Part shown: positions 45,907 to 46,702 of the stretch, in pieces
Position numbering within the stretch: the first letter of the stretch is position 1
Layout: the number at the start of each line of letters is the position of its first letter
Origin: Escherichia coli
GTDB taxonomy: Bacteria; Pseudomonadota; Gammaproteobacteria; Enterobacterales; Enterobacteriaceae
Reading direction: 5' to 3' (one strand)
Assembly (NCBI RefSeq): GCF_048403405.1
Contig: NZ_CP183129.1
Length of the DNA stretch: 64,000 bases
Notes under the pieces: generated by a model
What the model saw: only the letters and a program-made list of their open reading frames with translations
What the model was told of the DNA's origin: nothing
Databases searched by the model: none
Program-made: the position numbers and the translations under genes

Positions 45907-46000
45907 TGTACCGACCGGGCAGTGTTGCTGCCCGGTTCAAACATCATGGGATTCTGTGGTAAACTTCTCGCGATTTTGTGAAATCCTGGTTGAGGTATCT

Positions 46001-46702
46001 CTGAACACACCGGCACAGCTCTCTTTGCCACTTTATCTTCCTGACGACGAAACCTTTGCAAGTTTCTGGCCGGGGGATAACTCCTCTTTACTGGCCGCGC
46101 TGCAAAACGTGCTGCGTCAGGAACATAGCGGTTACATCTATCTCTGGGCACGCGAAGGCGCGGGGCGCAGCCATCTGCTGCACGCGGCTTGCGCGGAATT
46201 GTCGCAGCGTGGCGATGCGGTGGGCTATGTCCCGCTGGATAAACGCACCTGGTTTGTTCCGGAAGTGCTCGACGGTATGGAGCATTTGTCGCTGGTCTGT
46301 ATCGACAACATTGAGTGTATTGCAGGCGATGAGTTGTGGGAGATGGCGATTTTCGATCTCTACAATCGAATTCTGGAATCGGGCAAAACACGGTTGTTAA
46401 TCACCGGCGATCGTCCACCGCGGCAGTTGAATCTTGGATTACCGGATCTCGCGTCGCGTCTCGACTGGGGGCAGATCTACAAATTGCAGCCACTTTCTGA
46501 TGAAGATAAGTTGCAGGCGCTACAGTTACGCGCGCGTTTGCGTGGTTTTGAACTGCCGGAAGATGTGGGGCGTTTCTTGCTGAAGCGGCTCGACAGAGAA
46601 ATGCGCACGTTATTTATGACGTTGGATCAGTTGGATCGTGCGTCGATTACCGCGCAACGTAAGCTGACCATTCCGTTTGTGAAAGAAATTCTGAAACTGT
46701 AG
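46001..46702 (+). CDS. hda: DnaA-inactivating protein Hda (regulatory inactivation of DnaA), CTG start
   Basis: Hda homolog; the known K-12 CTG initiation codon (233-aa product) falls at 46001; the longer ATG-initiated track ORF begins at 45956. Confidence 0.85.

Follow-up and report, generated by a model that had tools for sequence, protein, structure and literature searches.

The window analysed here, a stretch of 64,000 nucleotides from the Escherichia coli contig NZ_CP183129.1 (assembly GCF_048403405.1), carries upp, uraA and hda on the plus strand, followed by arsC (yfgD) and bepA on the minus strand. The gene order in K-12 is likewise upp-uraA-hda-arsC(yfgD)-bepA. Over positions 45850-46750, identity was 100% with strain 118UI and 98-99% with thousands of further E. 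coli chromosomes. An open reading frame of 248 codons occupies 45956-46702 on the plus strand and ends with the TAG at 46700-46702. Its translation scored 476.6 bits against the NCBIfam model NF005982 'DnaA inactivator Hda' (cutoff 268) and 281.4 bits against TIGR03420 (cutoff 194.8). In addition, the Hda of PDB 5X06 aligned to residues 16-248 of the long translation, and all aligned residues matched except the initiator. Given the NF005982 score and the match to PDB 5X06, the reading frame is a genuine hda gene and not a chance ORF. The features of the locus are listed in Table 1.

Table 1 Features of the uraA-hda region, with positions in the window.
Feature	Position	Strand	Basis
uraA stop codon TAA	45904..45906	+	ORF list; RefSeq uraA corresponds to window 44617-45906
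Hairpin between uraA and hda, 11-bp stem, 3-nt loop	45913..45937	+	-22.2 kcal/mol, z -4.5
Candidate -35 hexamer TTCAAA, 4/6 match to TTGACA, 18-nt spacer	45936..45941	+	Inferred
Leader, apparently non-coding (15 'extra' codons of the 248-aa ORF)	45956..46000	+	No periodicity, frame-breaking indels, in-frame stops
GTG that opens the longest ORF; considered not to initiate translation	45956..45958	+	Bases read directly
Candidate extended -10 element TGgTAAACT	45957..45965	+	Conservation
Shine-Dalgarno GAGGT; GAGG core ends 5 nt before the CTG	45992..45996	+	Invariant in 87/87 sequences
CTG initiation codon of hda	46001..46003	+	RefSeq CDS start; 87/87 sequences; literature
hda coding sequence, 233 codons plus TAG stop (46700-46702)	46001..46702	+	K-12-identical protein, HMMs, PDB 5X06
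Beta-clamp-binding motif QLSLPL, residues 6-11 of the 233-aa form	46016..46033	+	Sequence
Nucleotide-binding loop GAGRSH, residues 53-58	46157..46174	+	Sequence; ADP-bound structure (PMC5397184)
Arg153 (R168 in the old 248-aa numbering)	46457..46459	+	Residue 153 is R by sequence

The 233-aa product was compared with the curated K-12 protein, the check that the sequence-only reading of this DNA had proposed, and the two were identical. The coding sequence differs from that of MG1655 by six synonymous nucleotides and no amino acid, and the segment 45907-46003, which covers the intergenic region and leader through the CTG, showed no difference at all. The gene thus shares both its protein and its start region with K-12 hda (b2496, NP_416991.2, UniProt HDA_ECOLI, RefSeq WP_001307333.1). 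The AAA+ domain features of Hda are present, namely the nucleotide-binding loop and Arg153, the residue known as the arginine finger of Hda. The E. coli Hda that was crystallised (PDB 5X06) consists of a tag followed by MNTPAQ..., and the structure paper describes the ADP-bound protein with residues numbered 1-233 (PMC5397184).

Downstream of hda, the spacer to arsC contains a REP element and measures 105 nt here as against 137 nt in K-12; K-12-like strains diverge from the window from about 46723 onwards. The palindromic REP-type element lies at 46744-46814 (GCCGGATAAGACGCGGCAAGCGTCGCATCCGGC) and matched the Rfam family naRNA4 with 32.9 bits, below the gathering score of 59.5. A 258-aa E. coli Hda variant on a contig of 5070 nt (P0016) carries an internal tandem duplication of ca. 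25 residues that doubles the arginine-finger segment, and this duplication may be genuine or may stem from the assembly.

When the bases were read directly, the first codon of the longest ORF proved to be GTG. The sequence-only reading had given the correct limits of this ORF and had misread its GTG as ATG, so that it was confirmed in part. No in-frame ATG occurs between the upstream in-frame stop (45893) and 46100, and the nearest ATGs, at 45906 and 45946, both lie in other frames. The in-frame CTG at 46001 is 15 codons downstream of the GTG and yields 233 aa, as had been claimed. That the CTG-started 233-aa protein is the true product had also been proposed, and on this point EcoGene 3.0 and the cross-species evidence described below agree.

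In its summary, EcoGene 3.0 gives a CTG start for K-12 hda, citing Su'etsugu 2008, and reports the use of this codon as experimentally shown (PMC3531124). The CTG start of hda is therefore already published and curated, and the gene in the window is an ordinary E. coli hda. Published ribosome-initiation profiling or N-terminal proteomics for Hda was not found; the Ribo-RET and TRAINSPOTTER texts contained no hda entry. In RefSeq, MG1655 hda (NP_416991.2) is complement(2618075..2618776), 702 nt, and PGAP likewise starts the gene at the CTG, with 702 nt, in 118UI and K-12 J53, the locus position 1652 corresponding to window 46001. When the leader segment 45950-45998 was searched against 5426 RefSeq E. 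coli genomes, no annotation lay over the leader in any of the 60 spread-sampled records. The main automated pipeline, RefSeq/PGAP, thus uses the CTG and does not lengthen the protein. The expectation that automated annotation would lengthen the N-terminus thus held for callers restricted to ATG, GTG and TTG, as the mechanical ORF lister returned the 248-aa form with its GTG start, and failed for RefSeq/PGAP.

Both forms are common in databases. The 233-aa form (HDA_ECOLI) and the 248-aa form (UniRef C3T057_ECOLX and GenBank/ENA/Logan calls) are each found on at least 1000 contigs in public collections, and the old NC_000913.2 annotation had hda at 747 nt, i.e., the 248-aa form (Kim et al. 2012, supplementary table). 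N-terminal variants of essentially one gene are deposited with 225, 233, 235, 238, 241, 244 and 248 aa. Salmonella and several Citrobacter loci (L004, L007-L014 and L016) have an in-frame ATG 8 codons upstream of the CTG that lacks a Shine-Dalgarno (SD) sequence; the 241-aa Hda annotations of Salmonella arise from this ATG. The longest-ORF rule also over-extends the neighbours of hda (window 43878-45906): it starts upp at GTG 43878 (217 aa) and uraA at TTG 44575 (443 aa), and the RefSeq lengths are 627 nt for upp and 1290 nt for uraA.

Pairing with the anti-SD sequence was evaluated at each candidate start. The GAGGT in front of CTG 46001 gave -6.9 kcal/mol, which is at about the top 5% of background 20-mers, and the values at the alternatives were -4.0 kcal/mol for GTG 45956, where only a weak GGGA lies upstream, +0.3 kcal/mol for CTG 45986 and -1.7 kcal/mol for TTG 46025.

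The start was then assessed across species using the hda loci of 80 Enterobacteriaceae species with 92-100% protein identity, anchored on the Asn codon that follows the start, to which seven species from other Enterobacterales families were added (87 sequences, six families in the alignment). CTG occupied the start position in 80/80 Enterobacteriaceae and in 7/7 species from the other families. In 46 of the 80 Enterobacteriaceae species, no in-frame ATG, GTG or TTG lies in the interval from the last in-frame stop to the CTG. A stop falls inside the 15-codon "extension" in 60/80 species, often 7 codons upstream of the CTG, and a canonical start at codon -15 is kept in just 7/80. The leaders of the 80 species differ by indels with lengths not divisible by three; in L006, a cryptic Escherichia lineage, a single nucleotide is inserted in the leader although the Hda is 99% identical. 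Conservation at the three codon positions was flat in the leader (0.80/0.80/0.82) as compared to 0.94/0.99/0.80 in the coding sequence, where third-position wobble begins at 46004, with none upstream in the 80 species. Amino-acid identity to E. coli was 0.33 over the 15 codons upstream of the CTG versus 0.96 over the 15 codons downstream.

The codon itself shows an unusual constraint. Among 38 conserved-Leu columns in the 80 species, the CTG at 46001 is the sole column with a single codon, and the other 37 use 3-9 codons; for invariant amino acids of all kinds, one single codon was found in 2 of 161 columns. The sole invariant Leu codon implies a constraint on the CTG triplet at the nucleotide level, as expected of a start codon. 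By these comparisons, 45956-46000 appears to evolve as non-coding DNA, and the open frame there looks accidental, confined to E. coli and a few relatives. We therefore consider it very probable, with little doubt remaining, that the E. coli gene for the AAA+ protein Hda is translated from CTG 46001 as 233 aa and that the 45 nt back to the GTG are untranslated.

We regard it as very unlikely that this strain expresses the 248-aa protein from GTG 45956, whether as its Hda product or as a second isoform of any significance. The GTG is a canonical start with an open frame after it, the longer form is widely deposited, and E. albertii and a few others retain the GTG in frame. Read-through from uraA, or a weak 5' end of two reads at 45336, would place the GTG on an mRNA. 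Within E. coli, 5422 of 5426 records share the leader at an identity of at least 99%, and polymorphism within the species is therefore uninformative on the start; with the GTG frame open, the same near-invariance leaves room for a minor 248-aa isoform made from uraA read-through. Against this reading stand the scarcity of canonical starts at -15, the stops inside the extension, and the frameshifting indels and missing codon periodicity of the leader, as well as the agreement of RefSeq, UniProt and the crystal structure on 233 aa. The position of the clamp-binding motif also argues against it. The motif begins at residue 6 in the 233-aa form and would be shifted to residue 21 in the 248-aa form, a family outlier: in 125 of 129 full-length representatives of distant Hda relatives in which the motif could be recognised, and whose annotated N-termini vary with the gene caller, its Gln is found between residues 2 and 15, most often at residue 4. 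Homologues from other Proteobacteria, such as Shewanella 3BOS and Caulobacter HdaA, resemble Hda in having an AAA+ DnaA-related fold with the clamp motif at the extreme N-terminus (NF006571, NF051883).

Two further in-frame codons were weighed against CTG 46001. Initiation at TTG 46025, a canonical start codon, would give a protein of 225 aa (MPLYLPDDE...) as in some older automated annotations, and forms of 225 aa or 678 nt are indeed in databases (P0077; Klebsiella KPN_02819). Such a start would remove the clamp-binding motif QLSLPL, lacks an SD sequence upstream, and would leave codons 2-8 (NTPAQLS) outside the protein despite their conservation with coding-type wobble; moreover, the codon at 46025 is CTG, not TTG, in 36/80 species. 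This start is therefore hardly credible. Equally improbable is the other in-frame CTG, at 45986, five codons upstream of the one preferred here. It is the same triplet in the same frame, but its three bases are conserved in only 54%, 40% and 55%, it has no SD pairing, and in-frame stops lie downstream of its position in many species, so that the comparative data already contradict it.

In Yersinia, Erwinia, Hafnia, Dickeya, Xenorhabdus and Proteus the start region reads GAG GTG CTT [CTG] AAY (L084-L089, positions 395-409), with the same spacing between the CTG and the SD sequence as in E. coli. The hda genes of these genera are annotated with 235 aa ('MLLNTP...'), from the GTG two codons before the CTG. 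Since this GTG is the 3' end of the conserved SD sequence (GAGGTG), it lacks the spacing to act as a start. In Serratia aquatilis, two inserted nucleotides (GAGGTGCTTTT[CTG]; L090, positions 390-403) put the GTG out of frame and bring a TGA to four codons upstream, and CTG is therefore the sole option. In some Enterobacterales species outside the Enterobacteriaceae, the same hda gene is annotated both as 233 aa and as 235 aa, and NF005982 has 235 positions, its alignment beginning two residues before the CTG. The 235-aa calls are thus probably two residues too long, and from the seven loci and the SD-spacing argument we infer that the CTG start extends throughout the Enterobacterales. For three hda genes from outside the order, belonging to a Colwellia cluster, a Ferrimonas cluster and one metagenome contig, the annotated start codon is GTG; these starts lie at L091 position 169, L092 position 401 and L093 position 401. 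In comparison with these three genes, CTG with GAGGT was seen in Enterobacterales alone. Weak non-ATG initiation may be a general habit of Hda, a low-abundance regulator.

The apparently non-coding leader contains one strongly conserved block, TGnTAAACT. In the 80 species, the TG at 45957-58 is conserved in 100%, the next base in 33% and TAAACT (45960-65) in 100/100/88/100/100/100%. When all 87 sequences were aligned, the invariant columns in the block were exactly the TG and hexamer positions 1, 2 and 6, the Proteus version being TGtTAGAAT. An invariant TG together with T1, A2 and T6 is the known information profile of an extended -10 element recognised by sigma-70. The TG of the block is supplied by the GTG 45956 of the long ORF. 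Of the candidate -35 hexamer, the TTC is conserved (100/100/99% in the 80 species) and the rest is not, and it overlaps the 3' arm of the hairpin. A C-G is conserved at 45971-72, where transcription would be expected to start. A consensus promoter scan scored the candidate promoter below threshold and made no call. These patterns suggest that the block could be a dedicated extended -10 promoter of hda overlapping the GTG, with a predicted transcription start at about 45972-45973. If this promoter is right, the hda-specific mRNA has a leader of ca. 29 nt that does not include the GTG.

The transcription-start table of Kim et al. 2012, a shallow dataset for a weakly expressed gene such as hda, had no start near 45972. 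It assigned to hda a 5' end of two reads at NC_000913.2 position 2617463, which corresponds to window 45336 inside uraA; if that end is real, the long transcript would include GTG 45956.

Other readings of the leader were considered and rejected. The similarity of TGTGGTAAA to the DnaA box TGTGGATAA (7/9 matches) is less likely to be meaningful than the -10 hexamer, because the invariant C/T at 45964-45965, the weaker conservation at 45955-45956 and the TAGAAT of Proteus fit a -10 element better. A conserved RNA structure was not supported (consensus energy -0.53 kcal/mol, no covarying pairs, single-sequence z +0.6), and no known RNA family matched the leader, the only hit being the sub-threshold REP/naRNA4 match downstream. 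An out-of-frame ORF of 11 codons from ATG 45946 (45946-45981; ATG GGA TTC ... TGA) has an ATG conserved in only 39-70% per base. This ORF would sit upstream of the predicted transcription start.

Between uraA and hda lies a hairpin, and none of 200 shuffled sequences was as stable. Across about 80 species, conservation of the columns in its stem is 85-99%, and some compensatory change occurs: the pair 45921:45929 is GC in 46, GT in 18 and AT in 14 sequences, and 45920:45930 is CG in 74 and TA in 3. No U-tract follows it in E. coli, and a terminator scan did not flag it. The hairpin may act as a (partial) terminator of uraA or as an insulator between the pyrimidine-regulated upp-uraA operon and hda.

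Taken together, one proposal would be that CTG and GAGGT are fixed across the Enterobacterales, that the 235-aa calls are overlong and that the GTG of E. coli lies inside a promoter of the form TGnTAAACT. We hold this combination only tentatively, leaning slightly against it as a whole. If it is true, the first two positions of NF005982 are also overlong, and the hda-specific mRNA starts near 45972 and lacks GTG 45956. The established knowledge of E. coli hda is unchanged by the present results, and the additions are modest: an order-wide CTG with its SD sequence, a likely over-extension by two residues elsewhere, and a candidate promoter over the spurious GTG.

The practical value of the start assignment is annotation hygiene. 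Residue numbers in the Hda literature shift by 15 between the old and new forms. It is important to place the N-terminus correctly, since the clamp-binding motif has to be at the extreme end of the protein and Hda can behave differently when extended or tagged there.

In the mechanism proposed here, GAGGT would place the ribosome and the initiator tRNA would decode CUG as fMet to give the 233-aa Hda, whose N-terminus would be fMet/Met-NTPAQLSLPLYLPDDETF as compared to MVNFSR... if translation began at the GTG. Together with the DNA-loaded beta clamp, Hda would then stimulate the hydrolysis of DnaA-ATP (RIDA), an activity that its identity to K-12 Hda leads us to expect.

A precedent for a functional weak start is infC, whose AUU start limits or regulates IF3, a dosage-sensitive protein; infC is autoregulated through the discrimination of IF3 against AUU. 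The CTG of hda may act in a similar way, which would be a resemblance in how the start works and not a membership in the same system, and we know of no feedback of the infC kind for hda. The EcoGene 3.0 summary lists yfjD as a second E. coli K-12 gene whose CTG start is verified and describes these CTG starts as recognised by conservation and inspection of ribosome-binding sites, followed by start-codon mutagenesis (PMC3531124). yfjD shares its non-canonical CTG initiation with hda, and the gene and its protein are unrelated to it. In E. coli reporters, CUG initiates at ca. 1-2% of the AUG level, with 0.02-3% across constructs (bioRxiv 10.1101/063800). Because of this low rate, the CTG codon most likely limits the level of Hda and keeps the protein scarce. 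A conserved weak start would thus fit Hda as a deliberately scarce, dosage-sensitive regulator of replication initiation.
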